Of a DNA stretch of 64,000 nucleotides, positions 27-38,394 are shown in pieces. Source of the DNA: an uncultured Gammaproteobacteria bacterium (GTDB lineage: Bacteria; Patescibacteriota; Microgenomatia; UBA8517); contig CAYSAY010000001.1 in assembly GCA_964429215.1 (NCBI GenBank), positions 27,931 to 91,930 on the forward strand, in the 5' to 3' direction. Numbering within the stretch: position 1 is the stretch's first letter; each line of letters begins with the position of its first letter. The position numbers and the translations under genes were made by a program. The notes beneath the pieces were generated by a model. It had not been told where the DNA came from. It searched no databases and worked only from the letters and a program-made list of their open reading frames with translations.

Positions 27-2045
27 ATGTTTTCTGTATTGTCTTTGTATATCTTTCCCTACAGTTATTTATTATCTGCTGTATTTTTATCACTTGGAAC
101 TTTGATTAAACCTCAAGCAGCCTTTATTTTACCTGCAATTTTATACTTATTTGTTAAATCTGACATAAATAAATTATTTATTCAGAGAATATTTAAATTA
201 ATTAAATATTCTTTAGTTGGTTTAATTTTTTTTGTAGCTGGTTTTATTCCTTTTAATAACTCTTCTACTTTATATAATTTTATTCTTGAACGATTAACTG
301 TATCATCAGGACAGTATCCATATGGGTCTATAAATGCATTTTCTTTTTGGGGTCTATTTGGCTTCTGGAAACCTGACAACATTTCATTTTGGATAGGCCT
401 TTTGGTTTCTGTATTGTTTACTGCAGTGGTGTCAGTTTCTGTGTATAAAAAGAAAATTGATAACGGTCAGTATCAAATTGCTGCGTTGTCGCTTTTAATA
501 TTCTTTATGTTTTTGACAAGAATACATGAAAGGCATCTTTTGCCTGTACTTGCTCCTCTCTTGATTTCTTCGTTTGGTAATCCGGTATTACTTATTGCCT
601 ATCTAGGTTTGTCGTCAACGTATATTTTAAATTTATCATACTCATATTTTTGGATTACTGATAATTTTAAAGAGATATTTAATCCAACGCTTATTAAATT
701 TTTTATAATTACAAATTTAAGTTTGTTGATATTAACTGTGGTAACAATATTTAAAAAGTTTAAGTCCAAATTTGATTTGGTTGGGCTCTTTAAATTTAAG
801 TCTAATAAAACAAATACAATTAAAATAAATTCAATTGTTAAATTTCCAACGAAAGATATTACTAAAAAATATGCAAACATATTACTTTTTGCAGTTTTAT
901 TGTTTAGTCTCTTTACAAGAATTTACAATTTAGGAACACCTAAGGAAATGTATTTTGATGAAATATACCATTCTTTTACTGCTAGGTTAGTTTTGAATAA
1001 TGACCCAAAAGCTTGGGAATGGTGGAATCCACATCCAGAAGGTTTTGCTTATGAGTGGACCCATCCCCCATTATCAAAACTTGGCATGGCGTTGGCGATG
1101 TACATCGCTGGTGATAATTCTTTTGGGTGGAGGATACCGCAAGCTATTTTAGGAACCCTTTCAGTCCTTATGATTTACCTTTTGGCAAACGAAATATTTA
1201 AGGATAGAAAAACATCAATACTTTCAGCTTTTGTTTTTAGTTTAGATGGATTGCCTTTAGTGTTGAGTCGTATGGGAATGAATGATTCATATGTTTTGTT
1301 TTTTGCACTACTTTCAGTATATTTATTTATTAAGGACAAAAACTTTTTATCTTCGCTTGTTTATGGATTGGCGTTATCTTCAAAATGGTCTGCTCTTTAT
1401 GTCTTTCCTATTTTATTTATTTCTCATTTTGTGTTTAGAAAAAAGATTACTATTTCTTATCTCTCGTTTATCGTTTTCCCGATTGCAGTTTACATTGCAA
1501 GTTATGGAATTATGTTTGCAACTGGACATACTTGGGCGCAATTTATAGAGGTACAAAAACAAATGTGGTGGTATCATACTAGTCTTGTGGCGGAGCATCC
1601 TTATACATCACCTGCGTGGTCTTGGCCGTTATTATTAAGGCCTATCTACCTTTATGATGGACAAGAAATAAATGGGATGGTTGCAAGGATTTATGCTTTT
1701 GGAAATCCATTAGTTTTCTGGTTTGGATTTTTTTCAATCATCCTTTCTGGATTCATATCTTACAAAGAAAGGTTTAGAAAATTAGGTTTTGTCGTATTTT
1801 CATACCTTATTTTATTTTTGCCATGGATTGCTTCACCTCGTATTATGTTTTTGTATCACTATTTACCGTCTATTCCTTATATGGCGATTGCTGCAGGGTT
1901 TATATTACGTCGTTTTCCTAAAATTATCCCTTATCTATTAATTCCTAGTGTTCTTCTTTTTGTCTATTTTTATCCTCATTGGACAGGTATGAGAATACCA
2001 TTAAAGCTAGACGAGAGTTATTATTGGTTTGCTTCTTGGAGATAA
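27..2045 (+). CDS. Membrane glycosyltransferase, PMT/ArnT (GT39) family, with an extra N-terminal multi-TM region. The ORF is open to the window 5' edge, so it is probably 5'-partial.
   Basis: Motif FTRIYNLGTPKEMYFDEIYHSFTA contains the loop-1 DE motif of protein O-mannosyltransferases. It is followed by EWTHPPLSKLGMALAM and many TM helices. There is no in-frame stop between position 1 and the first ATG. Confidence 0.6.
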   Translation: MFSVLSLYIFPYSYLLSAVFLSLGTLIKPQAAFILPAILYLFVKSDINKLFIQRIFKLIKYSLVGLIFFVAGFIPFNNSSTLYNFILERLTVSSGQYPYGSINAFSFWGLFGFWKPDNISFWIGLLVSVLFTAVVSVSVYKKKIDNGQYQIAALSLLIFFMFLTRIHERHLLPVLAPLLISSFGNPVLLIAYLGLSSTYILNLSYSYFWITDNFKEIFNPTLIKFFIITNLSLLILTVVTIFKKFKSKFDLVGLFKFKSNKTNTIKINSIVKFPTKDITKKYANILLFAVLLFSLFTRIYNLGTPKEMYFDEIYHSFTARLVLNNDPKAWEWWNPHPEGFAYEWTHPPLSKLGMALAMYIAGDNSFGWRIPQAILGTLSVLMIYLLANEIFKDRKTSILSAFVFSLDGLPLVLSRMGMNDSYVLFFALLSVYLFIKDKNFLSSLVYGLALSSKWSALYVFPILFISHFVFRKKITISYLSFIVFPIAVYIASYGIMFATGHTWAQFIEVQKQMWWYHTSLVAEHPYTSPAWSWPLLLRPIYLYDGQEINGMVARIYAFGNPLVFWFGFFSIILSGFISYKERFRKLGFVVFSYLILFLPWIASPRIMFLYHYLPSIPYMAIAAGFILRRFPKIIPYLLIPSVLLFVYFYPHWTGMRIPLKLDESYYWFASWR

Positions 2046-2119: not shown

Positions 2120-2485
2120 ATGATATATAAAATTGCAGATCTTGAGGTATATAAGATGTCAATAGAATTATTAAAGGATCTATATATATTTTTAAAATCT
2201 GCACCCTCATCTGAATTTGATCTTTCGAAGAATTGTAAAAGAGCAGCCAAATCAATTCCTGCAAACATTGCTGAGGGCTTCGCTAAAAGAACTCATGAAG
2301 CAGTATTTAAGAATCACTTATTGATATCGCTCGGGTCTAGCGATGAGGTAATTGCGCATTTAGAAACATTGATTGCTGTAATTCCGAGATTAAATGATAA
2401 AGCCAGAATATTAATGTCTAAATATACTATTCTCTCGAAGAGATTGAATACACTTCATAAAAATTGGCACACTTATGCTTTCTAG
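2120..2485 (+). CDS. Four-helix-bundle protein (23S rRNA intervening-sequence protein / Avd-like family)
   Basis: 121 aa. Motifs KIADLEVYKMSIELLKDLY and ANIAEGFAKRTHEAVFKNHLLISLGSSDEVIAHLE are typical of the TIGR02436/PF05635 family. Confidence 0.6.
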   Translation: MIYKIADLEVYKMSIELLKDLYIFLKSAPSSEFDLSKNCKRAAKSIPANIAEGFAKRTHEAVFKNHLLISLGSSDEVIAHLETLIAVIPRLNDKARILMSKYTILSKRLNTLHKNWHTYAF

Positions 2486-2541: not shown

Positions 2542-3417
2542 TTATAGTGCTAGAAGTAGGCTTCCAAGTATTACAAGTATTCCAAATCCTGTAGCAAGTA
2601 CTGTTGGCCAGCTTGTTCCTACAACTGGTAGTGAAGGCTGATTTGTAGGTGTAGATGTTGCAGCATTTGTTGCAACTGGGCAGGTACAATCAGTTTCAGT
2701 TAGACATTGTGTGTTTCTACAACTTCCGGTAGATGCGCCTGAAGCAATGTAACACATTAGGCCTGAAGGACAGTTGGCATTTGTTGTACAACTGTTGTTA
2801 CATTGTGGGTTTGCAGTAGCTGTAGCTGTTGCAGTTGATGTCGCTGTAGCTGTAGCTGTTGATGTCGATGACGCTGTAGCTGTTGGAGTTGCAGTTGCAC
2901 AGACACAAGTTGTTGATGTTGAACAAGAATTATTTCTACAGTTACCTGCAGTTTGTCCTGTTGGAATGTAACAAGTCATGGTTGTTGGACATTGTGTTGT
3001 ATTAGTACATGCAGTATTACATTGTGGAACAGCTGTTGCTGTAGCTGTTGCAGTTGGTGTTGCTGTTCTTGTAGGTGTTGCAGTTGGTGTTGCAGTTCTA
3101 GTTGGAGTTGCTGTAGGTGTTATTGTTGGTGTTGCTGTAGGTAGTGCAATTGTAAATACTAAAGAACAAGCTCTTGGCATACATAATCCAACGGTATTGT
3201 CTGTTCCTGTTTGTGTGCAGACTTCGTTTGGATCAGGACATAAGTCTCGTAATCTAGGATTACATGATTCTCCTGCTGCGGCTGGTTGACTTGATGGGAC
3301 ATTTGGAGCTACTGCTACATCTCTTGATTGGTATAGTTTAATAGCTGTAAAAATTGCAACTCCTGCAAGTATTAAAGTTGTAATTATTATTCCTATTGTT
3401 GTGTATTTATTTTTCAT
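2542..3417 (-). CDS. Membrane-anchored Cys-rich surface protein with a tandem 8-Cys module and TATPT linkers
   Basis: It has an N-terminal TM and two 43-aa modules with identical spacing (C-x3-C-x5-C-x5-C-x10-C-x4-C-x5-C-x-C). The modules are separated by (T-A-T-P-T)n linkers. There is a C-terminal hydrophobic segment. Confidence 0.5.
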   Translation of the reverse strand: MKNKYTTIGIIITTLILAGVAIFTAIKLYQSRDVAVAPNVPSSQPAAAGESCNPRLRDLCPDPNEVCTQTGTDNTVGLCMPRACSLVFTIALPTATPTITPTATPTRTATPTATPTRTATPTATATATAVPQCNTACTNTTQCPTTMTCYIPTGQTAGNCRNNSCSTSTTCVCATATPTATASSTSTATATATSTATATATANPQCNNSCTTNANCPSGLMCYIASGASTGSCRNTQCLTETDCTCPVATNAATSTPTNQPSLPVVGTSWPTVLATGFGILVILGSLLLAL

Positions 3418-4746
3418 TTAGATTATTTTTGGTTTCCATCCTAGTGATACATGGTTTAATTGTGCTTTTACTTCAAATCTAGTTGTTCCTGCTGAAAGTG
3501 CAGGAATTGTATATGATTGACAGAAATCTGTAGAACCTGGTCTAACTGCTGTTGTTTCTGGCATTTGGACACCGTTTATTTTAAAGATTGCTTTGTCGAA
3601 AGATCCTCCTGTTGCAGTTCCTGTTGCACAGAAGTTTACAACGCTACCTGCTCTTAATGCACCAAGTTGAGTAACTGTTAATTCAGTCCAAGTTGGACTA
3701 TATGCTTTTATGGTTTGGCATGAAGCTGTAATTGCAGGTGCAGTTGGTGTTGGTGCAATAGTTGGTGGGACTGTAGGAGGAGTTGTTGGTGGTGGATTTG
3801 TATTACATCCAGAATCATCAGTCCTTGAACAAAAACCTGATTGATTGTCTGCGTCTACTTGTACAATTCCACAAAAGCTTCCAGTTATTGTTTTACTTGT
3901 ACCGTTCCACCCAACACCAGATGGTAAGGGATCTTTTCGTTGACAACCATTAGGAACACCACCTGTACTTCCAATTCCTTCTTCACCTTTACAATAATAT
4001 GTCTGTACAGACCCAGTTATAGTACTACAATTACCGCCTGTAACGTTGTAACATTGTCTCTCCTCTAACACTTGATTACAAGTTCTGTTGGCGACTTTGA
4101 GACAAAAAGTACATTCAGATCCCCCAGTACCACTACCACATTGAAACCATCCTGCTCCTTCGGTTTGGCTAGAAGAACAATTTCCAGCTGTGATTTCTTC
4201 TCCACCACCTCCACCACCTCCGCCACATTCTTGTCCTGATTCGCCACAACTGTCTGATTGTGAATACCATTTACACTCATAACTTTTTTTAGGATCGCCT
4301 TTTAGAGGAGAGCAACTACTATTACATGACGATTGTGTTGTATTAGTTCCACATCCACCTCCTGCTTGCTCATTTATATTTTGATTTTGGCCTGTTAAAA
4401 ATACTCCTGCACCAACTCCTCCTACTAACAAAAACAATCCTAAAATTGTTGCTATTACTTTTCCGCCTGCAAATTTTTTCTTTGGACCTGAGATTACTAC
4501 TGCGGGCATTACTGTATCAATTTTTATGTCATCTGCAGGTGCAGCAGAACCAGAATCAACAACTGGAGATGGATTAACAACATCTTGTGCCACTCCGCTA
4601 AGCGGAGTTTTGTCCTCGCTTAGCGAGGGCATAGGAGGAAGAATATCTTCTTGTATTAATACAGGTGGAATACTGGTTGGTTGTGACTGTGTATCGTCTG
4701 TTTTAGCTTGTTTCTGATCGTTAGGCATATGACTTTTTGTATACAA
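3418..4746 (-). CDS. Cys-rich membrane-anchored surface protein with a Pro-rich N-terminus, a poly-Gly run and a PTTPPTVPPT linker
   Basis: 442 aa. TM at aa 95-117. There are more than 30 Cys, a GGGGGGGGEE run and a Thr/Pro linker. It overlaps the upstream gene by 26 nt (operonic). Confidence 0.45.
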   Translation of the reverse strand: MYTKSHMPNDQKQAKTDDTQSQPTSIPPVLIQEDILPPMPSLSEDKTPLSGVAQDVVNPSPVVDSGSAAPADDIKIDTVMPAVVISGPKKKFAGGKVIATILGLFLLVGGVGAGVFLTGQNQNINEQAGGGCGTNTTQSSCNSSCSPLKGDPKKSYECKWYSQSDSCGESGQECGGGGGGGGEEITAGNCSSSQTEGAGWFQCGSGTGGSECTFCLKVANRTCNQVLEERQCYNVTGGNCSTITGSVQTYYCKGEEGIGSTGGVPNGCQRKDPLPSGVGWNGTSKTITGSFCGIVQVDADNQSGFCSRTDDSGCNTNPPPTTPPTVPPTIAPTPTAPAITASCQTIKAYSPTWTELTVTQLGALRAGSVVNFCATGTATGGSFDKAIFKINGVQMPETTAVRPGSTDFCQSYTIPALSAGTTRFEVKAQLNHVSLGWKPKII

Positions 4747-6049
4747 ATATACTGGATAACAATATCCCTATACCCATTATGAATAAGCCAAGTGTTGGTG
4801 TCAAGCTACCAGTTTCTGGTGTTGGCATCAGTGTACTAACTGCAGTTGCAGTGGCCTTTTGAGTCGCAGATACAGTTGCTGTTGCAGTAGATGTTGCAGA
4901 TGCTTGAGTTGTTGCAGTTGAAGTAGCTTTTTGAGTTGGTGTTGCTGATGGAGTAGACTCAAATGCTGGTCCTTCCGCAGCAGAAACGACAAATGATTTT
5001 GTAACTGTTCTTAAAATACCAGTTGCGTCTCTCCATTTTAAAGTTACTTTGTGTTCACCTGGTTCAAGGTTATTTGGTGGACTCCATTTCCACGCACCTT
5101 TAGAATCTGCTGTAATAACTGCGGATTGTAATTCTGATTCAACCTGAATTTCTATTTGTGCTTTTGTTGGTGCTTTACCAAAAAATTCTGGATCAGTTGT
5201 ATTTATTATTTCTCCTTCATCTATAGATTCAATAGATAAAGTACTTACTGTATTTGGTACTTCTGATTTAGTAATTTCAAATCTTGAAGAAGCTTCTATC
5301 GCTTGTGGTACAGACAATGAACTTTCAGGAAGTGTTGTATCGTTGTTTTGAGTTAAAGTTCTAAAGTCATATGTTTTACCTAAGACTATTACTGGAATTG
5401 ACTTAATGTTTTTAGAATAAATTACAGCTGATGAGTTTCCATTTGATCCTCCATTTACTGTTATTTCAATAGCTGCTGATTCTGAGACGTTGTCAACATA
5501 ATTTGATATTGGAATAATATAACTACCTTCTGGTGAAGTAATATTTGTTAACAGAGTTCCGTTTATATTGATTGTAACGATTGCTTGTGCCGGTGTTGCT
5601 CCGTCTGCAAGGTAGACTATACCTGATGCAATTAAATTTTCAGTTCTTGCAACTTTATTGTTATTTGTGGTTAATTGCCATGCAATTCCATCGTTATCAT
5701 AATCTTTTCCTTCTGAATTTACTTTGAAGAATATATTTGAACCGGCATCTATCCCAGATATTGTAGCTGAATGTACAAAGCTTTTTTCAGAGTTTGTCTC
5801 AAGTGCAACTTTACTTAAACTATTTTGAGATTTACCCCATTTGACAAATCCTTTGGTCTCAATGTCTGTGTTCCAGGTTACTGTTGCTTCTGTGTTTGTT
5901 ACATTGCTAAATCTAACATTCTTAGGTGTAGTGGCAACACTAGCGCCGATTTTAAAAACTGATTTTGAATTAATTAAAAAGACTCCTGCTACAACACCAA
6001 TTACTAATATAATTACTCCAAGTATTGTAGGAAGTTTAGCTCTATTCAT
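4721..6049 (-). CDS. FN3-domain surface protein with a C-terminal cell-wall sorting-like signal
   Basis: N-terminal TM/signal anchor. PKNVRFSNVTNTEATVTWNTD...FFKVNS is an FN3-like domain. The C-terminus has a Thr/Ala/Ser linker, then PTPETG, a hydrophobic stretch and KKSYA. Confidence 0.5.
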   Translation of the reverse strand: MNRAKLPTILGVIILVIGVVAGVFLINSKSVFKIGASVATTPKNVRFSNVTNTEATVTWNTDIETKGFVKWGKSQNSLSKVALETNSEKSFVHSATISGIDAGSNIFFKVNSEGKDYDNDGIAWQLTTNNNKVARTENLIASGIVYLADGATPAQAIVTININGTLLTNITSPEGSYIIPISNYVDNVSESAAIEITVNGGSNGNSSAVIYSKNIKSIPVIVLGKTYDFRTLTQNNDTTLPESSLSVPQAIEASSRFEITKSEVPNTVSTLSIESIDEGEIINTTDPEFFGKAPTKAQIEIQVESELQSAVITADSKGAWKWSPPNNLEPGEHKVTLKWRDATGILRTVTKSFVVSAAEGPAFESTPSATPTQKATSTATTQASATSTATATVSATQKATATAVSTLMPTPETGSLTPTLGLFIMGIGILLSSIFVYKKSYA

Positions 6050-6245
6050 CGTGAGTTCTAAGTTTTATCTCATCTAATGTTTTTATGTCAAGGTTTGGAT
6101 CAAGCTTTAAAATTAATTCTTGTGGAATATCAGTTTTTGATTCTTTAGTAAAAACACTATATATAGAAAAACTGATCCAAAATAGTGTAGTAATTAAAGT
6201 AAGAATAATTAATATTATTAAACTTGGTAATTTATTTTTTTTCAT
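6042..6245 (-). CDS. Small membrane protein (hypothetical)
   Basis: 67 aa. MKKNKLPSLIILIILTLITTLFWISF is a TM helix. It overlaps both flanking operon genes. Confidence 0.3.
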   Translation of the reverse strand: MKKNKLPSLIILIILTLITTLFWISFSIYSVFTKESKTDIPQELILKLDPNLDIKTLDEIKLRTHDE

Positions 6246-6906
6246 TTTGTTTAGTATCTATTGTATAAGGAACTCTTCCTGAGATTAATAAGCTTATTAT
6301 CTTACCGTTTTCAGTAGTATTTGCATTAACTATTATTGAATCAATTTTTATTGGTCGTCTTAAATATTCAATACTTTTTAAGTATGATGATAAATTTTGA
6401 TATTCACCAGATACTGTAATTGAAAAAGGTAATTCACTAATGTCACCAAATACATTAGATACGTCAGCTGATTTTTGTTTTGCAGGTGGCACACCTTTCA
6501 TGACGATGTCAGATGATGACATACCAACAATTTGGACATTTGAAGATAATGCAATTTTTTCAAATTGTTTTATAAGCGTTTCTGGTGATGATGAGTTTGG
6601 AATAGCTTGATCAAGATATTGTAATTTTTCTGAATTTGTTTGAAGCAAGTTGCTTGCTTTTTGTAAATTACTAATTTTTTGATTTAATTCTGCAATTGTT
6701 GCTGTCTTTGATTCAATTTCTTTACTTAATTCTACAATTGTAAGTACTGTTGGTTTGATCGCAAAAATTGAAAATATAATTATCGTTACAATGGATAATA
6801 TTAGTTCAAGATATATTTTTAAGTTTGGTTTGCTATTATAGACACTAAGAATATTTAAAAAAAATTCTTTATATCTATAATAGTCATGTTTCCATCCAAT
6901 TGCCAT
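6232..6906 (-). CDS. pilO: Type IV pilus assembly protein PilO
   Basis: N-terminal TM, then a coiled coil, then a C-terminal DISELPFSITVSGEYQNLSSYLKSIEYLRRPIKIDSI segment typical of PilO. Confidence 0.6.
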   Translation of the reverse strand: MAIGWKHDYYRYKEFFLNILSVYNSKPNLKIYLELILSIVTIIIFSIFAIKPTVLTIVELSKEIESKTATIAELNQKISNLQKASNLLQTNSEKLQYLDQAIPNSSSPETLIKQFEKIALSSNVQIVGMSSSDIVMKGVPPAKQKSADVSNVFGDISELPFSITVSGEYQNLSSYLKSIEYLRRPIKIDSIIVNANTTENGKIISLLISGRVPYTIDTKQNEKK

Positions 6907-6907
6907 A

Positions 6908-7474
6908 TTATTTATTAGTCGTTAGTTGATTACTAGACACTTCAGCAGTAATAGTAAAATTTGTAATTGCGGAATTTTCAGTGTTTGATGAAACTTGAGT
7001 TAAATTAACATTTGTTAAAAACTTAGAATTTTCAAGGTTTATTAAAAATTGAGCAATTGATTGTTCAGAGAAAGAAATTGCTTTAATAGTTAAGTCTTTG
7101 TTTGTAATTGAAATTGAACTTAGAATGGTGTCACTTGGTATGTATTTTGAGACAGCTTCAATGGTGTTATTCACACTTGGTTCAGAATAGAGGACATTTA
7201 GAATTTTTAGTTTGTTTTGGTTAAGTCGGAACTGGTCTTCCGTACTAGCATATGCTAAAACTTGTGATTTTTTAACATTAAGTTCATCGTTAAGATCTGA
7301 ATTTCTTGAGTCAAACCAAAATCTTGAAAGAAATGCACTCATAACAATAAGTTCAGTAATAATAACTGTGACACGAAATGTAGAAAGAGCCCATTTTAAT
7401 ATTCGACCAACAGTGGAACCTTCGAATTCTTCTTGAGGTATTAGATTAATTTGTTTTGTTTTTCTAATGGGCAT
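6908..7474 (-). CDS. pilN: Type IV pilus assembly protein PilN
   Basis: N-terminal INLIP motif (INLLP in PilN), then a basic stretch and a TM helix. It lies immediately upstream of pilO. Confidence 0.55.
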   Translation of the reverse strand: MPIRKTKQINLIPQEEFEGSTVGRILKWALSTFRVTVIITELIVMSAFLSRFWFDSRNSDLNDELNVKKSQVLAYASTEDQFRLNQNKLKILNVLYSEPSVNNTIEAVSKYIPSDTILSSISITNKDLTIKAISFSEQSIAQFLINLENSKFLTNVNLTQVSSNTENSAITNFTITAEVSSNQLTTNK

Positions 7475-7517
7475 GTACTCAATATATCACATAGAAAGTC
7501 GCGTTAGAAGAGAAAAT

Positions 7518-7751
7518 TTATTTTGAAAGTTTTGATAGCTGAGATTTAATTCTTGCAGCTTTGTTTGCATGAATTGATCTGCTTTTTGAAGCTTTGTCGG
7601 CAAAAGATGATGCTGATTCTATATCTTTTTTAGATTTTGTTTTTTTAGCTTTTTTAATTGCTACTTCGAGCTTGGTTAAAACTACTTTATTTATAGCTTC
7701 TTTTCTTTGAGAACCTCTTAATGCTCTTTTGGCTGTTTTTGTTACTGGCAT
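7518..7751 (-). CDS. rpsT: 30S ribosomal protein S20
   Basis: 77 aa, basic. The MPVTKTAKRALRGSQRK...AINKVVLTKLE pattern matches S20. Confidence 0.8.
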   Translation of the reverse strand: MPVTKTAKRALRGSQRKEAINKVVLTKLEVAIKKAKKTKSKKDIESASSFADKASKSRSIHANKAARIKSQLSKLSK

Positions 7752-7787
7752 ATGGGTAGTATAATCTGGAAAAGCTAATTTGACAAT

Positions 7788-9482
7788 ATGAACATGAAAA
7801 TATTAACAAATAAAATAAAATCACTTTTTCAAGATCAGCAGCACTCAGTACTTTCTGCAGCTACTTTAATTATGGTGATGATTGTCATATCAAGGCTGTT
7901 GGGTTTGGTTAGACAAAGAGTACTTGCTCATTTTTTTGAATCTAGTGACTTAAGTTTGTTTTTTGCTGCATTTAGATTACCTGATACTATTTTTGAAGTT
8001 TTGGTTTTTGGAACTTTTGCATCCGCGTTTATTCCTATATTTACCACAACACTTAAAAAATCAAAAGAAAATGCTTGGAAAGTTGCTGGAATTATTGCAA
8101 ATTGGGGTGGAGTAATTTTTATAGTTTTGGCTACTATTGTGGTTATATTTGCGCATCCTTTGTATAGAATAATAACTCCTGGGTTTAATTATTCTGATCA
8201 GGCAAAAATTGCCGATCTTGCAAGAATTCTTTTTGTGGCACAAGGGTTTTTTGTAATCTCGTATGTATTGACTGCAGTCCTTGAGTCATCCAAACGATTT
8301 TTTGTACCTGCTTTAGCACCACTTTTTTATAACCTTGGAATGATACTTTCTACGATACTATTTGCAGATAAGTTGGGACTTTATGCCCCTGTAATTGGTG
8401 TAGTAGTGGGATCGGCAATGCATTTTTTTATCCAATTGCCACTTGCCATTAAACTTGGGTTTAGATTTAGTAAGGCGTTTACTCTTACGCCTGAAGTAAA
8501 AAAAATAGCCAAATTATCACTTCCTCGCATTGCAGAGGTTTCTTTCTTGCAAGTTGCTAAATTTGTTGAGCTCACGTTAGCGAGCCTAATTTCTGTCCCT
8601 GCGTACACTTATTTTACCTTTGGAAACACAATTCAACTATTGCCGGTTGGGCTTTTTGGTACTTCAATTGCAAAAGCTGCTCTTCCTACACTTGCAAGAC
8701 AAGCTGACGACCTTCCTGCATTTAAGAAGACTTTGTTTGAAACGCTAAATCAAGTTATATTTTTAATGGCACCCATTGTTGCATTTTTGATGGTCGCAAG
8801 GGTTCCAGTTGTAAGACTTATTTTTGGAACTGATATCTTTACTTGGAATGCTACAGTTGAAACATCCCTTGTTGTGTCTGCCTTTGCTTTTGGAATATTT
8901 TCTCAATCAATTAATTCAATCCTAGCAAGGTCTTTTTACGCATTATCAGACACAAAAACTCCTGTAATTGTTTCGGTTTCTACATTAATTTTAAATATTG
9001 TTATGGACTATATATTAGTAATTGTATACAAGCTTCCAGTTTGGAGTTTGGCAGCTGCGTTTTCTGTTTCATGCATTATTCAATCCGTAATACTTTTTGT
9101 ACTAATAACAAATAGAATTCATGATGGTGCAAAGAAAAGTTTATACATCCCAGTTTTGAAAATGTTTTTTTCAGGTTTAGTTTCAGGGAGCACTATGTTT
9201 TTCATATTAAAGTTTTTTGATAAATCTGTTTGGCTTAAGAAAATATCCTTTATCTCAAACCTTGATTTGCCGTTTGAGAAGTTTGTATTAGACACTAGGT
9301 ATGCTGGAAATTTATTGATGTTGACTGCGATCGTAGGTTTAATAGGTGTTGTTGTTTATATAATAGTTTTAAAATTATTAAAATCAACAGAGCTTGATAC
9401 ATTCATAAATTTATTTAAAAGAATGCTTCGTGGTCAAAAGTTTTCTACCGTATCAAATACTGAACAAACATTGGAGAGTTAA
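7788..9482 (+). CDS. murJ: Lipid II flippase MurJ (MviN)
   Basis: 564 aa polytopic membrane protein. N-terminal SAATLIMVMIVISRLLGLVRQRVLAHFFESSD is the MurJ signature. Confidence 0.8.
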   Translation: MNMKILTNKIKSLFQDQQHSVLSAATLIMVMIVISRLLGLVRQRVLAHFFESSDLSLFFAAFRLPDTIFEVLVFGTFASAFIPIFTTTLKKSKENAWKVAGIIANWGGVIFIVLATIVVIFAHPLYRIITPGFNYSDQAKIADLARILFVAQGFFVISYVLTAVLESSKRFFVPALAPLFYNLGMILSTILFADKLGLYAPVIGVVVGSAMHFFIQLPLAIKLGFRFSKAFTLTPEVKKIAKLSLPRIAEVSFLQVAKFVELTLASLISVPAYTYFTFGNTIQLLPVGLFGTSIAKAALPTLARQADDLPAFKKTLFETLNQVIFLMAPIVAFLMVARVPVVRLIFGTDIFTWNATVETSLVVSAFAFGIFSQSINSILARSFYALSDTKTPVIVSVSTLILNIVMDYILVIVYKLPVWSLAAAFSVSCIIQSVILFVLITNRIHDGAKKSLYIPVLKMFFSGLVSGSTMFFILKFFDKSVWLKKISFISNLDLPFEKFVLDTRYAGNLLMLTAIVGLIGVVVYIIVLKLLKSTELDTFINLFKRMLRGQKFSTVSNTEQTLES

Positions 9483-9586: not shown

Positions 9587-10417
9587 ATGGAAGTGAGTAA
9601 GATCGCAATCTTCAAAGGCAAAAAGGTAAGAAAAGTTATTTTTCAAAATGAGTGGTGGTTTTCTGTTGTTGATGTTGTTGAAGCTTTGACAGATAGCGTA
9701 GATCCGCGTGATTACTGGTTTAGAATGAAAGTCAGAGTTAAAAGTGATGATGGAATTGAGTTGTCGACAATTTGTCGACAACTGAAATTAGAATCGTCTG
9801 ATGGTAAAAAATATAATACGGACTGTGCAAATACTGAAAGTATTTTTAGGATTATCCAATCGATTCCTTCTCCAAAAGCAGAGCCTTTTAAGCGCTGGCT
9901 GGCTAAAGTTGGATATGAAAGGGTACAGGAGATTGAAGATCCTGAACTTGCCACAAAAAGAACAAGAGCTATTTATAAAGCAAAAGGTTATCCCGATTCT
10001 TGGATTGAAAAAAGAATGCGTGGTATTGAAATCCGAGAAACATTAACAGATGAATGGAAAAAGAGGCGGGTTGGAGGGGATTTAGAATACGCAATTCTAA
10101 CTGCTGAAATTTCAAAGGCTACTTTTGGAATGATCCCAAGTGAATATAAAAAGTTCAAAGGTTTAAAAAGAGAAAATCTTCGTGATCATATGAATGACCT
10201 AGAATTAATTTTTTCAATGCTTGGTGAGGCATCAACGACTGAAATTGCTAAAAATCAGAATTCTCAAGGATTTATAGAAAATAAAATCTCTGCACAAAAA
10301 GGTGGAACAGTCGCAGGTAATGCAAGAAAAGAACTCGAAAAAGAAAGTGGGGTAAAAGTTTCAACCAAAAAGAATTTTAAGTTATTGAAAAATAAAAATC
10401 TTCAAATTGATAGTTGA
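9587..10417 (+). CDS. BRO-N domain protein, DinD-like (DNA-damage-inducible protein D family)
   Basis: FQNEWWFSVVDVVEALT is a Bro-N motif. The C-terminal half resembles E. coli DinD (KGLKRENLRDHMNDLELIFSMLGE...). Confidence 0.55.
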   Translation: MEVSKIAIFKGKKVRKVIFQNEWWFSVVDVVEALTDSVDPRDYWFRMKVRVKSDDGIELSTICRQLKLESSDGKKYNTDCANTESIFRIIQSIPSPKAEPFKRWLAKVGYERVQEIEDPELATKRTRAIYKAKGYPDSWIEKRMRGIEIRETLTDEWKKRRVGGDLEYAILTAEISKATFGMIPSEYKKFKGLKRENLRDHMNDLELIFSMLGEASTTEIAKNQNSQGFIENKISAQKGGTVAGNARKELEKESGVKVSTKKNFKLLKNKNLQIDS

Positions 10418-20433: not shown

Positions 20434-21684
20434 ATGAGTCATAAAATAATTACTCTAATTTTAACTAGTTTTTGTTATCTGTTTTTATTAGTAAATAATA
20501 TCAGTGCACAAACATGCAATTTTCCCATCGGTGATAGTAATCTAAGAGATTACGGAACGGTAAAATCTCTAGAGATTGGTGGTCCTATACTTGGAAAAAT
20601 GACTGGTTTAGTAAATGATTCTGTCGAGGAGACAAAACTATTGAAAGAATTCTCATTTGCGGTTTCACCAGTTTTCATGGCCAGAATCCAACCAACAAGA
20701 AACACATTCAACTATTTATCAATGAATAAGGATATTGAAGTTGCGAAGCAATACAATTTAAAGCTAAAGGGTGACAGTTTGATTTTTGGAACTACTTCAA
20801 TAAGTCCCGGATGGCTAGGATTTACTGACACTAGTTGTGGTTCGTGGACTAATGTCGAACTAGATTCAATAATGAAAGACCATATTCAGAAAATAGTTAC
20901 ACATGGTGGGTCAAATTATTCAATATGGGAGGTGGTTAATGAGCCGTTTGACGGCAACGGCAATCTTTATAGATGTTGGTACAAAATACTTGGTAGGGAG
21001 TATATAGCCAATGCTTTTCGATATGCTGACCAAGCAAGACCTAATAAAGATATCAAATTAATGTTGAATGAACATTTTGGGTGGACTGCTTCACTTACTG
21101 AAGACAAACCGAAAATAGACGCCTTTATTAATTTAGTTAAAGAGCTGAAAAATGCAAATATTCCCCTAGATATTTTAGGAATCCAATTACATTTAAGGTT
21201 AGATGGGTTGTCCCAAACATATATAGATGAAATAAATTATTTTTTGACAGCAGCTCAGTCATTGCAGTTACCTGTACATATCACTGAAATGGATGTTTAT
21301 CAGGGAGTGTCACCTATGGCTGATTGGGAACAACTTCAAAAAAATGTATATAAAAACATCGTAGCTACATGTCTAAAATACTCAAACTGTAAATCATTTT
21401 CAACATGGGGAATATCTGACAAGTCAACATGGTTGAACAGTATAAATAATTTTCCAAACCCTAAACCACTTCTTTTTGATACAAATTATCTAAAAAAGCC
21501 TGCATATTTTGGTGTCGTAGAGGCAATATCTGAAGATACATTTCGTACATGTACTTCAAAACCAGGAGATTTAAATAATGATGGTTCTGTAAATATTTTC
21601 GATTACAATATTTTAATTTCGAAATTTGGAAACCCTTATACTTATGCAGATTTTGATTTGGTTGTTATAAATTATGGTAAATAA
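20434..21684 (+). CDS. Secreted glycoside hydrolase family 10 (endo-1,4-beta-xylanase-like) with a C-terminal dockerin-like module
   Basis: Signal peptide. WEVVNEP (acid/base), LGIQLH, HITEMDV (nucleophile) and STWGISDKSTWL are GH10 motifs. The C-terminal DLNNDGSVNIFDYNILISKFG is a dockerin Ca-binding repeat. Confidence 0.7.
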   Translation: MSHKIITLILTSFCYLFLLVNNISAQTCNFPIGDSNLRDYGTVKSLEIGGPILGKMTGLVNDSVEETKLLKEFSFAVSPVFMARIQPTRNTFNYLSMNKDIEVAKQYNLKLKGDSLIFGTTSISPGWLGFTDTSCGSWTNVELDSIMKDHIQKIVTHGGSNYSIWEVVNEPFDGNGNLYRCWYKILGREYIANAFRYADQARPNKDIKLMLNEHFGWTASLTEDKPKIDAFINLVKELKNANIPLDILGIQLHLRLDGLSQTYIDEINYFLTAAQSLQLPVHITEMDVYQGVSPMADWEQLQKNVYKNIVATCLKYSNCKSFSTWGISDKSTWLNSINNFPNPKPLLFDTNYLKKPAYFGVVEAISEDTFRTCTSKPGDLNNDGSVNIFDYNILISKFGNPYTYADFDLVVINYGK

Positions 21685-22783
21685 CAGACTTAAAACATTA
21701 AAGATTGTAGCAGAAATAGTTGTGGCAATCATTTTGTTAGTCTCTTTGGTACTTGGAGTAAATCTTGTTCTGAAAGGGAGAAATAATCTTGGTTCTATCG
21801 CTGGTGTTGTTGGGCCAAAGATAGCATTTTCAACGACGACCAGTACAATGAAATTGGGAGAATCAAAATCTTTTGACATTTTGCTGTCGACAGATACTAA
21901 TTTTATTACCGCCGTTCAAGTCGATTTGTCTTACGACCCTACAGTTTTGGATCAGGTAACATTTTCAAATGGCACAATTACCCCAGTCGTTTTAAAACCG
22001 CTCTCTACCAACAATGGAATTGCGTCTATAACACTTGGAGTGATGCCAACAAAAGCTTTCCATGGAAATGGTATTGTTGGTAAACTAAATGTCCATGCTA
22101 AAACTATAAAGAAAACTTCAATTACTTTTACTCAGAATTCTATTGTAACTTCGATGAATATTAACTCAAACACCCTAACTACCAGTGATTCAATTTTGAT
22201 TGATATTGTACCAAACACAATATTAGATTTTTCTGATGTTCCCACTTCACACTGGGCCTACAGTAATATAAGAATTTTACAGATACTAGGTATAGTACAA
22301 GGGTGTTCTCAAAATCCTTTAAAATATTGTCCAGAAGACCCAACTACTCGTTCTACAGCTAGTATCTTTTTACTTAAAGGAAAGTATGGTCAGAACTATT
22401 CGCCTCCGTTAGCCACTAAAACAAGTTTTTCTGATGTTCCCACTTCACACTGGGCATACAAATGGATTGAGCAATTAGCCAAAGAAGGGATAACTTCTGG
22501 TTGTGGATCTGGTAAATATTGTCCAGAAAGTCCTGTCACAAGAGCTCAGATGGCAGTATTATTGTTAAAAACAAAACATGGAATTAGTTATGTCCCATCC
22601 GTTTTTCCGACATCATTATTTTCTGATGTTCCCACTTCACACTGGGCATACAAATGGATTGAGCAATTAGCCAAAGAAGGGATAACTTCTGGTTGTGGAT
22701 CTGGTAAATATTGTCCAGAAAGTCCTGTCACAAGAGCTCAGATGGCAGTATATATAGTCAAGACTTTTAATTTGAAAATATAG
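21674..22783 (+). CDS. Cell-surface anchoring protein: N-terminal TM, a cohesin-like domain and three SLH domains
   Basis: AVQVDLSYDPTVLDQVTFSNGTI and NGIVGKLNVHAKTIKKTSITF resemble cohesin strands. There are three FSDVPTSHWAY...VTRAQMAV repeats (SLH). Confidence 0.6.
   Translation: MVNNRLKTLKIVAEIVVAIILLVSLVLGVNLVLKGRNNLGSIAGVVGPKIAFSTTTSTMKLGESKSFDILLSTDTNFITAVQVDLSYDPTVLDQVTFSNGTITPVVLKPLSTNNGIASITLGVMPTKAFHGNGIVGKLNVHAKTIKKTSITFTQNSIVTSMNINSNTLTTSDSILIDIVPNTILDFSDVPTSHWAYSNIRILQILGIVQGCSQNPLKYCPEDPTTRSTASIFLLKGKYGQNYSPPLATKTSFSDVPTSHWAYKWIEQLAKEGITSGCGSGKYCPESPVTRAQMAVLLLKTKHGISYVPSVFPTSLFSDVPTSHWAYKWIEQLAKEGITSGCGSGKYCPESPVTRAQMAVYIVKTFNLKI
22428..22760 (+). repeat. Tandem direct repeat: two identical ~131-bp copies (22428-22558 and 22630-22760) with a 202-bp period, encoding SLH domains 2 and 3
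   Basis: Verbatim identical DNA, ttttctgatgttcccacttcacactgggcatacaaatggattgagcaattagcc...cagatggcagta. Confidence 0.9.
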
Positions 22784-33894: not shown

Positions 33895-35631
33895 ATGATC
33901 ACAAGTAATGAAGTAAGGGAAAAATATTTAAAATTTTTTGAGAAACGGGGACATGCAATAATTCCTCCAGCCCCACTTGTATTAGAAAATGATCCAACTA
34001 CTTTATTTACATCATCTGGAATGCAGCCATTGGTCCCTTATTTAATGGGCAAAAAACATGAATTAGGAACAAGGCTTGTTGATTCGCAGCCTTCAATTAG
34101 GCTTCAAGATATAGAGGAGGTTGGAGATAACAGACATACTACTTACTTTGAAATGTTGGGTAATTGGAGTCTTGGCGATTATTTTAAAGAAGAACAACTT
34201 CCTTGGATCTGGGAGTTTTTAACTAAAGAATTAAAATTATCACCTACGAAGTTGTATGTCTCAATTTTTGAAGGTACATCAGATGTTCCTGAAGATATTG
34301 AAAGCTTTAATATCTGGAGAAAGTTAGGAGTTCCTGAAGACCATATTTTTGAATATGGTGTTAAAAAAAATTGGTGGAGTAGAAGTGGTACACCTGACCA
34401 GATGCCTGAAGGAGAAATTGGGGGACCAGATTCTGAGATATTTTTTGATTTTGGCGAATCTTTAAAATTACATGAAGCATCTGAGTTTAAAAATGATAAA
34501 TGTAATCCAAATTGTGATTGCGGAAGGTTTTTAGAAATCGGAAACTCTGTTTTTATTCAGTACAGTAAAAATAAGGATGGTTCTTTGTCAGAACTACCTC
34601 AAAAAAATGTCGATTTTGGAGGCGGTTTAGAAAGAATTACGGCAGCACTTAATAATGATCCAGATGTATTTAAAACTGATATCTTTTGGCCAACGATTGA
34701 AAAACTTGAAGAAATAACTGGTAAAAAATATGATGATGAAAAAAAGAATTTTAGGATTATTTCAGATCATTTAAGAGCTTCAAAAGCTCTAATTGATAGT
34801 GGGGTTGTTCCATCGAATAAGATGCATGGATATATTCTCAGACGATTGGTAAGAAGAGTTGTAACTAAACTTGATAAATTTGAAATGCTGGTTACAGAAC
34901 CGCTTATTTTAGAAGAATACAGAAAGTTTAAAGTTAGTCTTGAGAATGGTTTAAAGGAGATTAAAAAAATTGAAAAAATTACAGGTAAAATAGCTTTTGA
35001 TTTATATCAATCCTATGGGTTTCCGCTTGAATTGACTGTAGAACTTTTTGCAGATAAAGGACAAAAAGTGGATTTGGAAGAATTTAAAAAGGAGTTTGAG
35101 AAACATAAAGATGCATCCCGATCTACTTCTAAAGGAATGTTTAGAGGCGGTCTTGAAGATCACTCAGAAGAAACGACCAAGTTACATACAGCAACACACA
35201 TGTTGCATGCATCACTACGAAAAGTTTTAGGCGACACTGTAAGCCAGAAAGGAAGTCATATTACGGCTGAAAGGCTAAGATTTGATTTTTCATATACAAA
35301 CAAATTAACAGATGATCAAGTTAAAGATGTGTTTGATTTGATTAACGAGAAAATTGATCAGGATTTAACGGTAAGTTTTGTTGAAACTACACCTGCTGAA
35401 GCCATCAAAAAAGGAGCATTACATTTCTTTGCAGAAAAATATGGTGAGAAGGTTAAAATGTATACAATAGGTTCAGAAAATGATTATTTTTCGCGCGAAA
35501 TATGTGGAGGACCGCACGTCACTAGCACAAGCCTTTTAGGTCATGCTAGAATGATTAAGCAGGAGAAAATTGGGAGTGGAATAATACGAATATATGTTGG
35601 ACTTTCTGACAAAATCAAAAGAGAAAAATGA
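33895..35631 (+). CDS. alaS: Alanine--tRNA ligase, compact form without the C-Ala domain
   Basis: N-terminus VREKYLKFFEKRGHAIIPPAPLVLENDPTTLFTSSGMQ. The editing domain has HTATHMLH and CGGPHV. 578 aa. Confidence 0.85.
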   Translation: MITSNEVREKYLKFFEKRGHAIIPPAPLVLENDPTTLFTSSGMQPLVPYLMGKKHELGTRLVDSQPSIRLQDIEEVGDNRHTTYFEMLGNWSLGDYFKEEQLPWIWEFLTKELKLSPTKLYVSIFEGTSDVPEDIESFNIWRKLGVPEDHIFEYGVKKNWWSRSGTPDQMPEGEIGGPDSEIFFDFGESLKLHEASEFKNDKCNPNCDCGRFLEIGNSVFIQYSKNKDGSLSELPQKNVDFGGGLERITAALNNDPDVFKTDIFWPTIEKLEEITGKKYDDEKKNFRIISDHLRASKALIDSGVVPSNKMHGYILRRLVRRVVTKLDKFEMLVTEPLILEEYRKFKVSLENGLKEIKKIEKITGKIAFDLYQSYGFPLELTVELFADKGQKVDLEEFKKEFEKHKDASRSTSKGMFRGGLEDHSEETTKLHTATHMLHASLRKVLGDTVSQKGSHITAERLRFDFSYTNKLTDDQVKDVFDLINEKIDQDLTVSFVETTPAEAIKKGALHFFAEKYGEKVKMYTIGSENDYFSREICGGPHVTSTSLLGHARMIKQEKIGSGIIRIYVGLSDKIKREK

Positions 35632-37720: not shown

Positions 37721-37734
37721 GTAAATCAAAAGTA

Positions 37735-38394
37735 ATGAATCGTCGTAAAGTAGTCAAACTTGCTAGTCTAATTTCAGGTCTTTCGGGACTTACAATTCTT
37801 GTATCTTCAGTATGGCCAATAGTAGAATATCAGTTAACTGAGGCCAGATCTTATACAACATTATTATCACCATTAGTAATAACAAAAGAAGATCAGGTAC
37901 AAAAAACAGGTGATTTAACAAAAGCTTCTAATTGGTTTCCAGATGCTCCTAAAAATGATCAGTTCGAGAAGTCAAAAGTTGATTTCTATACAATTTCGAT
38001 ACCAAAATTAAAAATTGATAATGCAATTGTTTCAATAGGTGGGGAAGATTTGTCAAAAAATCTTGTTCAGTATCCTGGAACTGCATTACCTGGAAAAAAT
38101 GGAAATGCAGTAGTTTTTGGCCATTCAGTTTTACCAATTTTTTATAACCCAAAAAATTATATGGCAATATTCTCTACTCTTCCAACACTTAAAACAGGTG
38201 ACGACATACTAGTTAATTATGACGGAGTTGCCTTTAAATTTTTAGTGGAGGAAATGTTTGAGATTTATCCTTCAGACATTCAAATATTAGAGCAAAATCC
38301 ATCAGATTCGTTTTTGACGTTAGTCACTTGTACTCCACCAGGGGACCCTAGAAATCCTAAGAGATTGATAGTAAGGGCCAGAGTTACTTCTTGA
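37735..38394 (+). CDS. Sortase (transpeptidase)
   Basis: N-terminal membrane anchor, VVFGHSV (His), LTLVTCTP (TLXTC Cys), RLIVRARV (Arg). Confidence 0.8.
   Translation: MNRRKVVKLASLISGLSGLTILVSSVWPIVEYQLTEARSYTTLLSPLVITKEDQVQKTGDLTKASNWFPDAPKNDQFEKSKVDFYTISIPKLKIDNAIVSIGGEDLSKNLVQYPGTALPGKNGNAVVFGHSVLPIFYNPKNYMAIFSTLPTLKTGDDILVNYDGVAFKFLVEEMFEIYPSDIQILEQNPSDSFLTLVTCTPPGDPRNPKRLIVRARVTS

Follow-up and report, generated by a model that had tools for sequence, protein, structure and literature searches.

The window (the whole stretch of 64,000 nucleotides that was analysed) contains near its start an open reading frame (ORF) for a protein of 291 amino acids (aa), in which a small module with eight cysteines, here called the 8-Cys module, occurs twice. 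Five metagenome contigs carry a protein identical to the product of this ORF. In the order of translation, the ORF and its parts are the following.

2542..3417, minus strand: 8-Cys ORF, 291 aa, an envelope protein with two 8-Cys modules
3340..3396, minus strand: N-terminal hydrophobic anchor, aa 8-26 (a 19-residue helix), preceded by basic MKNK (sequence inspection)
3283..3312, minus strand: VAPNVPSSQP motif after the anchor, aa 36-45 (conserved in alignments)
3181..3264, minus strand: tentative, degenerate 4-Cys mini-module, aa 52-79, CNPRLRDLCPDPNEVCTQTGTDNTVGLC (by-eye likeness to the C-P-x4-C...G-x-C core)
3148..3168, minus strand: CSLVFTI, aa 84-90, a lone Cys opening an alternating-hydrophobic, strand-like CxLxFxI motif (alignment A5)
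3028..3147, minus strand: linker 1, Thr/Pro/Ala-rich, aa 91-130 (DNA repeat at 3032-3140)
2899..3027, minus strand: 8-Cys module 1, aa 131-173 (regular-expression match and family profile)
2809..2898, minus strand: linker 2, Thr/Ala/Ser-rich, aa 174-203 (DNA repeat at 2816-2897)
2680..2808, minus strand: 8-Cys module 2, aa 204-246 (regular-expression match; first sequence of the AlphaFold alignment)
2617..2631, minus strand: LPVVG sortase-type (LPxxG) sorting motif, aa 263-267, followed by conserved TSWPT (alignment A6)
2545..2616, minus strand: C-terminal hydrophobic segment, aa 268-291, ending in LLLAL, with no basic tail (sequence)

A preliminary description of this DNA had reported two 43-aa modules with the cysteine spacing C-x3-C-x5-C-x5-C-x10-C-x4-C-x5-C-x-C, both beginning with PQCN. 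This was found to be correct; the pattern, used as a regular expression, gives two exact matches (aa 133-173 and 206-246), and PQCN opens both modules, which with the PQ prefix span aa 131-173 and aa 204-246. The residues between the cysteines diverge, as had also been stated, with 49% identity between the modules overall and 37% outside the cysteines. Since identity amounts to 60% in the DNA and 49% in the protein, the duplication that gave rise to the two modules is old. The modules are separated by low-complexity linkers of the TATPT type, likewise as described, which are encoded by imperfect tandem repeats (6/24/30 nt).

Such DNA calls for caution, since repetitive linkers yield long antisense ORFs, and the orthologue on contig L001 was split by one gene caller. 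The modules could then be a chance or compositional artefact, that is, part of a spurious ORF lying antisense to or within low-complexity DNA. This explanation is refuted by the conservation data and is given practically no weight; the 8-Cys pattern arises in none of 200,000 shuffles of the 291-aa protein, the protein is conserved at 47 syntenic loci, where identity drops to about 30% while the cysteines are preserved, and the family has 119 representatives. The syntenic orthologue on contig L001 has two modules with the same spacing as in the window. The two-module observation is thus confirmed, and the repeats are true copies of a small module.

Scans of the 291-aa protein against Pfam and NCBIfam gave no match at E<=1, and a sequence search of the PDB with the same protein returned noise only. 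When the two modules were concatenated and used in a word-index search of proteins, one relative was found among two candidates (P0001, whose contig is L001), while the same kind of search with an alignment of 149 modules gave no match. The preliminary description had suggested searching metagenomes for the spacing pattern. The family was recovered only by an exhaustive search, in which a three-module profile was run with HMMER against 1.84 billion representative proteins; 119 proteins were found at E<=1e-3, of which 35 also reached E<=1e-10. These profile-search representatives include 112 proteins with a total of 207 eight-Cys modules, and the number of copies per protein ranges from zero to five across the family.

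The spacing of the cysteines (numbered C1 to C8 in the following) had been called invariant. This holds among close relatives and fails across the family, whose signature is C-x3-C-x5-C-x5-C-x(4-17)-C-x4-C-x5-C-x-C; the fourth loop, between C4 and C5, is the sole variable spacing, and seven of the eight spacings are essentially fixed. Among the 207 modules, it most often has four residues (n=82) or ten (n=59), followed by six (n=16), eight (n=15) and nine (n=11). All eight cysteines are retained in 205 of the 238 matches to the hidden Markov model (HMM) of the module, and the consensus reads P-x3-C-N-x2-C-T-x-N-x-D-C-P-S-G-[LM]-x-C-x(4-17)-C-R-N-P-x-C-x2-E-T-D-C-x-C. The arginine following C5 is conserved in 96% of the modules; the asparagines following C1 and this arginine, as well as the glycine two residues before C5, are each conserved in 76-80%. 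The aspartate before C3, the proline after C3 and the proline after R-N are the commonest residues at their sites (38-49%). In the long-loop class, the hairpin is conserved as Y-I-x-S-G-x-T-x-G and displays no hypervariability. A variant with ten cysteines, in which a second C-P-x-G-x-x-C hairpin is nested in the C4-C5 loop, was observed in P0048, P0107 and L058 (ORF from 7361), which indicates that the hairpin unit can duplicate inside the module.

The preliminary description had regarded the module as uncharacterised and had failed to match it to EGF, Kazal or TNFR domains. Indeed, no EGF or Kazal match was obtained in the whole protein or in the 149 modules, only one of which matched a nematode TNFR-like model (E=0.034). 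No match above threshold was found in Pfam, NCBIfam or the PDB, and no description of the 8-Cys module turned up in the literature. The proteins of the family are annotated as 'hypothetical protein' or, in one UniRef entry, carry an unsupported integrin label. Viral contigs were searched as well and gave no module relatives; for this reason, a phage origin was dropped. The module is hence a domain family new to the searched copies of Pfam-A and NCBIfam, though it is of a familiar kind, that of small disulfide-rich extracellular modules. With a clear consensus and 207 copies in 112 proteins, its definition provides annotators with a ready domain model.

The claim of novelty has to be qualified in one respect; the inner four cysteines resemble those of the DPY module of the insect protein Dumpy. 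When 149 non-redundant modules were scanned individually against Pfam at E<=0.1, 46 matched Dumpy_DPY (PF21164; best 3.7e-6), 26 matched DUF7107, 18 Toxin_11 and 16 WAP, with scattered matches to other families. The two modules of the window had no Pfam match at this threshold, PF21164 included. Ten short-loop modules were examined singly, and eight of them matched PF21164 at 15-24 bits, below the cut-off of 27 bits, while two gave no match. The span of the DPY match is constant, from C2 through the R-N-P after C5. On searching the PDB with the 149-module profile, the best match was 1OIG, a DPY module (E=0.006), and hhalign aligned the profile with the 1OIG sequence at 93.7% probability across 21 columns.

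DPY is a two-disulfide module with the spacing Cx5Cx5Cx4C (PMC12723725). The C2-C5 spacing of the short-loop modules (82 of 207) is identical to this, whereas that of the modules in the window is x5, x5, x10, equivalent to a 6-residue insertion in the hairpin. The residues aligned around the inner cysteines are C-x-x-N-S-D-C-P-S-x-x-x-C-x4-C-R-x-P. Both are tiny beta-hairpin modules found in tandem in long extracellular, presumably load-bearing proteins. They differ in that DPY has four cysteines in about 21-24 residues and the 8-Cys module eight in 35-48 residues; DPY has been reported in a matrix protein of arthropods, in alternation with EGF modules, whereas the 8-Cys module belongs to bacteria of the Candidate Phyla Radiation (CPR) and is flanked by Thr/Pro-rich linkers. 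No EGF match was seen in scans of 11 family proteins, that of the window included. The 8-Cys unit is therefore uncatalogued, with an inner core that is DPY-like. The informative positions are so few that homology and convergence with DPY are inseparable; by either ancient descent or convergence, a hairpin of a giant matrix protein of insects would also serve in bacterial stalks.

Similar care is needed with two other families. NCBIfam TIGR04201, a 22-residue Cys-rich repeat of Myxococcus, was matched by 40 of the 149 modules at E<=0.1. TIGR04201 and DUF7107 are short Cys-rich repeats that have the motif C-x-x-x-x-D-C-x-x-G-x-x-C in common with the module, but their matches span 16-29 residues only. 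When examined singly, they fell below the cut-offs (one TIGR04201 match at 17 against 25 bits; DUF7107 at no more than 17 against 24.6 bits). These matches seem to reflect a generic hairpin core rather than membership in either family.

A profile and structure search, another check proposed in the preliminary description, gave no family above threshold and revealed the DPY-like core, along with weak neighbours of the knottin type. AlphaFold2 with the 149-sequence alignment predicted a small beta-hairpin domain at a predicted local distance difference test (pLDDT) score of 81.6. The hairpin comprises residues 19-22 and 30-34, which bear C4 and C5, and short elements lie near C2 and C6. A single-sequence model of both modules with their linker displayed the same secondary structure; its pLDDT was 61.5 and it was therefore left out of the fold search. 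Foldseek against the PDB returned weak matches only, none below E=0.46, and the neighbours were all knottin-like, among them Evasin-3, carboxypeptidase inhibitors and Dkk. Knottins such as spider and cone-snail toxins, Evasin-3 and the carboxypeptidase inhibitors resemble the module in size, cysteine density and the central beta-hairpin, and P-superfamily conotoxins (Toxin_11) resemble its N-terminal CNxSCxxxSDC. An inhibitor cystine knot (ICK) consists of six cysteines paired I-IV, II-V and III-VI, the third disulfide threading the ring. By analogy with carboxypeptidase inhibitors and ICK toxins, which act in this manner, the module could be an inhibitor or toxin, displayed on the surface or released, that blocks a protease or channel of a host; this is considered very improbable.

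The pairing of the cysteines may be approached through their losses. C6 and C8 are both missing in 12 modules of seven proteins, in which the last cysteine stays 11 residues past C5, at the site of C7; the joint disappearance of C6 and C8 suggests a local bond between the two. The minimal versions found as HMM matches have four cysteines, C2-C5 only. The most likely pairing, as far as these patterns go, would be C6-C8 and C1-C7, together with two DPY-like bonds inside C2-C5, predicted to be C2-C4 and C3-C5. A cysteine-stabilised alpha-beta (defensin-like) arrangement, with CxxxC paired with CxC, had been considered and was rejected on the basis of the joint loss of C6 and C8.

Disulfides are not the only use to which eight invariant cysteines within about 41 residues could be put. 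They might bind zinc or an iron-sulfur cluster, which would make the module an extracellular metal-binding or redox element; the likely hosts are anaerobic, so that extracellular disulfide formation is no certainty, and the 4-Cys mini versions could make one Cys4 site each. Several observations are at odds with this. The region lies outside the cytoplasm, with a membrane anchor on one side and a sortase-type tail on the other, and CxxC pairs, typical of zinc sites, are absent. The common 6-Cys variant would suit three disulfides but no Cys4 sites, the core aligns with the disulfide-bonded DPY module, and the fold neighbours are all disulfide-rich domains. Matches to zinc-finger Pfam families were sporadic, with one or two of the 149 modules per family. 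Metal binding is accordingly given little credence.

With regard to the rest of the 291-aa protein, its 21 cysteines comprise 16 in the modules, four in the N-terminal insert and the lone Cys84. The anchor is the most conserved segment of the host-protein family (alignment consensus LAGVAIFTAIRLYQ), and the remainder of the protein beyond it is predicted to be extracellular. A pilin reading of the N-terminus was rejected on inspection of the sequence, there being no prepilin motif of the G/FTLIE type. The motif after the anchor, conserved as VAPxAPxSxP between the membrane helix and the linker, is possibly a processing site or a donor strand; V36, P38 and S43 are invariant in alignment A6, and P38 also in the wider alignment A5. 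The 4-Cys insert at aa 52-79 is present in P0004, P0028 and P0033 as well, and its assignment as a mini-module is tentative, since the module HMM gives no detection there. In alignment A5, C84 is invariant and F88 almost invariant, and a loose CxLxFxI expression matches 44 of 47 orthologues from related loci. This motif, too, is possibly a donor strand or a processing site. Cys84 had been considered as a lipoprotein cysteine, which was rejected, as the residues before it form no lipobox. At the C-terminus, L263, P264, G267, T268, W270, P271 and T272 are all invariant in alignment A6.

This type of tail is widespread in the family. A LPxxG motif with a hydrophobic tail is found in 80 of the 112 module-bearing proteins, ten of which have the classical LPKTG-type motif with a basic tail, and the median distance from the end of the last module to the motif is 18 residues. 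The 15-residue flanks of the modules consist of T, P, S or A to 65-67%, against 40% in the whole proteins. The 291-aa protein resembles the LPXTG proteins of Gram-positive bacteria in its C-terminal LPxxG, the hydrophobic segment, the Thr/Pro-rich stretch before it and the presence of a sortase in the genome. In contrast to LPXTG proteins, V, A or S stands in place of T at position 4, a conserved T-x-W-P-T comes after the glycine, and a basic tail is missing; furthermore, there is no obvious signal-peptidase site near the N-terminal hydrophobic segment, which may thus stay in the membrane. Against TIGR01167, the tails of two relatives, P0003 and the L040 orthologue, scored 10.6-13.9 bits and that of a neighbouring protein with FN3-like and Big domains 14.8 bits, all just below the cut-off. 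When the tails were scanned against NCBIfam for further sorting signals of the C-terminus, only near-threshold LPXTG_anchor matches and one weak PFE-CTERM match (in the tail of this neighbour) were obtained.

The strand opposite the Thr/Ala-rich linkers contains long antisense ORFs (2774-3289, plus strand), which code for 63-103 aa with a high content of Cys, Val and Ala. On contig L001, a gene caller placed a spurious antisense gene over the linkers and thereby truncated the real 8-Cys gene.

The neighbouring genes and the sortase gene of the window are listed below.

27..2045, plus strand: PMT-family (GT39) glycosyltransferase, convergent with the 8-Cys gene (PF16192 6.6e-19, PF02366 3e-14)
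2120-2485, plus strand: 23S rRNA intervening-sequence protein (PF05635), between the 8-Cys and PMT genes
3418..4746, minus strand: Cys-rich neighbour, 442 aa, 21 Cys, upstream of the 8-Cys gene (syntenic in about 45 loci)
4721..6049, minus strand: FN3-like/Big_13 protein, 442 aa (Big_13 7.6e-9, Pur_ac_phosph_N 5.8e-7)
6042..6245, minus strand: small membrane protein, 67 aa (conserved in the cluster)
6232..6906, minus strand: PilO homologue (PF04350 3.1e-8)
6908..7474, minus strand: PilN homologue, first pilus gene of the cluster, after rpsT (PF05137 2.5e-14)
7518-7751: rpsT
37735..38394, plus strand: sortase, 219 aa, with TLVTC active-site motif (PF04203 8.6e-25), candidate enzyme for LPxxG processing

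From pilN through the 8-Cys gene, the genes of the window abut or overlap. The Cys-rich neighbour was said in the preliminary description to have more than 30 cysteines; the actual count is 21. Its N-terminus, long and conserved, is cytoplasmic and is followed by a single membrane helix. The Cys-rich middle, which includes eight consecutive glycines (nt 4200-4226), is poorly conserved, whereas a C-terminal domain of about 100 aa is well conserved and matches nothing in Pfam. The homologues P0014, P0029 and P0036 carry the 8-Cys module. The FN3/Big protein has an N-terminal anchor and ends in TPETG, a hydrophobic segment and a KK tail. The PMT gene may extend past the start of the window, as it was called as 825 aa at the same position on contig L002.

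Related loci were collected by scanning GTDB species genomes with a 9-sequence alignment, and the gene order was determined by tblastn with the proteins of the window. This gave 53 loci, mostly in metagenome-assembled genomes of Candidatus Woesebacteria, the Microgenomates group and Patescibacteria; about 20 were labelled 'uncultured Gammaproteobacteria' and a few had other labels or none. The host is placed as a Woesebacteria/Microgenomates bacterium of the CPR (Patescibacteria), whose cells are ultrasmall. In about 40 loci, the order is MurJ (on the opposite strand), rpsT, pilN, pilO, the small membrane protein, the FN3/Big protein, the Cys-rich protein, the 8-Cys protein and the convergent PMT gene, and protein identities across the syntenic loci go down to 30-50%. 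The PMT gene adjoins the 8-Cys gene in about 35 loci. The PF05635 gene was detected at the same spot only in L015, L025 and L043 among the related loci, which suggests a variable insertion. It was also observed that pilM does not adjoin pilN in the conserved cluster (window 2542-9482, loci L007-L059).

Among the 47 orthologues in the last position of the cluster, 22 have no module, 13 have one, ten have two and two have three; in a few of the 22 without a module, the ORF is truncated or obscured by a contig end or by runs of N. Four elements, namely anchor, CxLxF motif, linker and LPxxG tail, are retained in all these classes, and the shortest orthologues (146-149 aa) contain nothing else. Since orthologues with zero to three modules keep the other elements, the module can be regarded as an optional, accessory insert in a stalk.

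On this basis, it is considered moderately probable that the module is a disulfide-stapled structural bead or spacer in a stalk protein of CPR bacteria that is anchored to the wall and probably O-glycosylated. The N-terminal helix would enter the membrane, and the body of the protein would be exported and folded oxidatively. The centre of each module, C2-C5, would form a DPY-like beta-hairpin with two disulfide staples, and C1, C6, C7 and C8 would form two further disulfides that clamp the N- and C-terminal segments. The Thr/Pro-rich linkers may be O-glycosylated by the adjacent PMT-type transferase, and the sortase of the genome may process the LPVVG tail and so attach the protein to the wall. 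The modules would then have no part in catalysis and would be compact, protease-resistant and rigid beads that determine how long and how stiff a wall-crossing stalk is, a role filled in Dumpy fibres by the EGF and DPY modules. Of all this, the analysis shows the module with its family and predicted class of fold, the architecture of the protein, the synteny and the sortase gene; the disulfides with their pairing, the glycosylation, the processing by sortase and the function as a spacer are inferred. Such a module would mark a class of wall-anchored proteins in Microgenomates. CPR/Patescibacteria make up a large share of bacterial diversity, and their surface proteins are mostly annotated as hypothetical.

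Several findings speak against this proposal. The hosts are probably anaerobes. As to the pairing, a divergent module of P0101 lacks C1 and C8, and C1-C8 with C6-C7 would fit equally well. The tail of the 8-Cys protein itself has no match to TIGR01167 (cut-off 15.9 bits), no K or R follows its hydrophobic segment, and V replaces the canonical T in LPVVG. The PMT gene is convergent and is not transcribed together with the 8-Cys gene; that the two are neighbours may be due to nothing more than inherited gene order. Lastly, the modules are the sole recognisable folded domains of a small protein of 291 aa and may therefore bind something specific.

This last point leads to an alternative in which the module serves in recognition or adhesion. 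The C4-C5 hairpin and a surface rich in Ser, Thr and Asn would bind a ligand of a host cell or matrix, for instance a glycan or a protein partner from the pilus-associated cluster, and the 8-Cys protein would be a small adhesin and no passive stalk. The length of the C4-C5 loop, 4-17 residues across the family, would suit such a role, and binding knottins (Evasin-3, carboxypeptidase inhibitors, Dkk) are among the structural neighbours. CPR bacteria are, in addition, thought to depend on contact with host surfaces (PMC4736985, PMC7143001), which counts in favour of adhesion. On the other hand, the module-free positional orthologues retain every other feature, the module is usually the domain nearest to the anchor, with PKD, Big and other domains distal to it, and the hairpin of the long-loop class is conserved in sequence rather than diversified. 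Adhesion is deemed unlikely, though it is the main rival of the spacer reading.

The company of pilN and pilO allows a further reading, in which the 8-Cys protein and its two upstream neighbours are unrecognised type IV pilus envelope components of the monoderm CPR bacteria. In the pil operons of Gram-negative bacteria, pilN and pilO are commonly followed by genes for PilP and the secretin PilQ; CPR cells have no outer membrane. The disulfide knots and glycosylated linkers would then build a collar or tether embedded in the wall, held by the membrane at one end and by the peptidoglycan, via sortase, at the other. The CxLxFxI strand might be donated to the beta-rich C-terminal domain of the Cys-rich neighbour, in a donor-strand complementation like that of Pam pili. 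These pili are specific to the CPR, with Microgenomatia among the classes that have them, and feature paired cysteines, post-translational modification and assembly by a donated beta-strand (bioRxiv 10.64898/2026.03.03.709456). The CxLxFxI motif looks like a donated strand of this kind. The link to the Pam pili is speculative, and the cluster here differs from Pam systems in that it is centred on pilN and pilO rather than on Pam chaperones. NCBIfam, Pam models included, gave no match at E<=1 to the three proteins of the window, and the sole match to a Pam model was weak (18.7 against a 300-bit cut-off) and lay in the PKD region of the relative P0021. A role as pilus components is regarded as rather improbable. 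The strictly conserved cluster of rpsT, pilN, pilO, three envelope proteins and PMT is in any case a testable lead on how pili or other surface structures cross the CPR envelope.

Taken together, the interpretation given in the preliminary description, that of a previously uncharacterised module in tandem, is partly supported.

A number of minor observations concern the remainder of the window. The sortase gene directly follows the gene of a 708-aa protein (the pair lies at 35594-38394, plus strand). This protein gives a weak match of the Baseplate_J-like type, its gene overlaps that of alanyl-tRNA synthetase, and its C-terminus bears no sorting signal. Beyond 7.8 kb, nearly all genes are on the plus strand, and there is no tRNA gene in the 64 kb. 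The GC skew is positive in nearly all 2-kb bins, at about +0.15 to +0.35 beyond 8 kb except for lower values near 20-24 kb, 40-42 kb and 52-54 kb; an unusual strand composition disparity has been reported for one genome of the Microgenomates (PMC7143001). Between MurJ and hrcA-grpE-dnaK-dnaJ, there is a gene for a BRO-N protein (9587-10417, plus strand). Proteins with BRO-N domains are often associated with phages. A gene for a GH10 glycoside hydrolase is followed by one for an SLH-domain protein (20434-22783, plus strand), a pair that points to a wall-attached, polysaccharide-degrading function.

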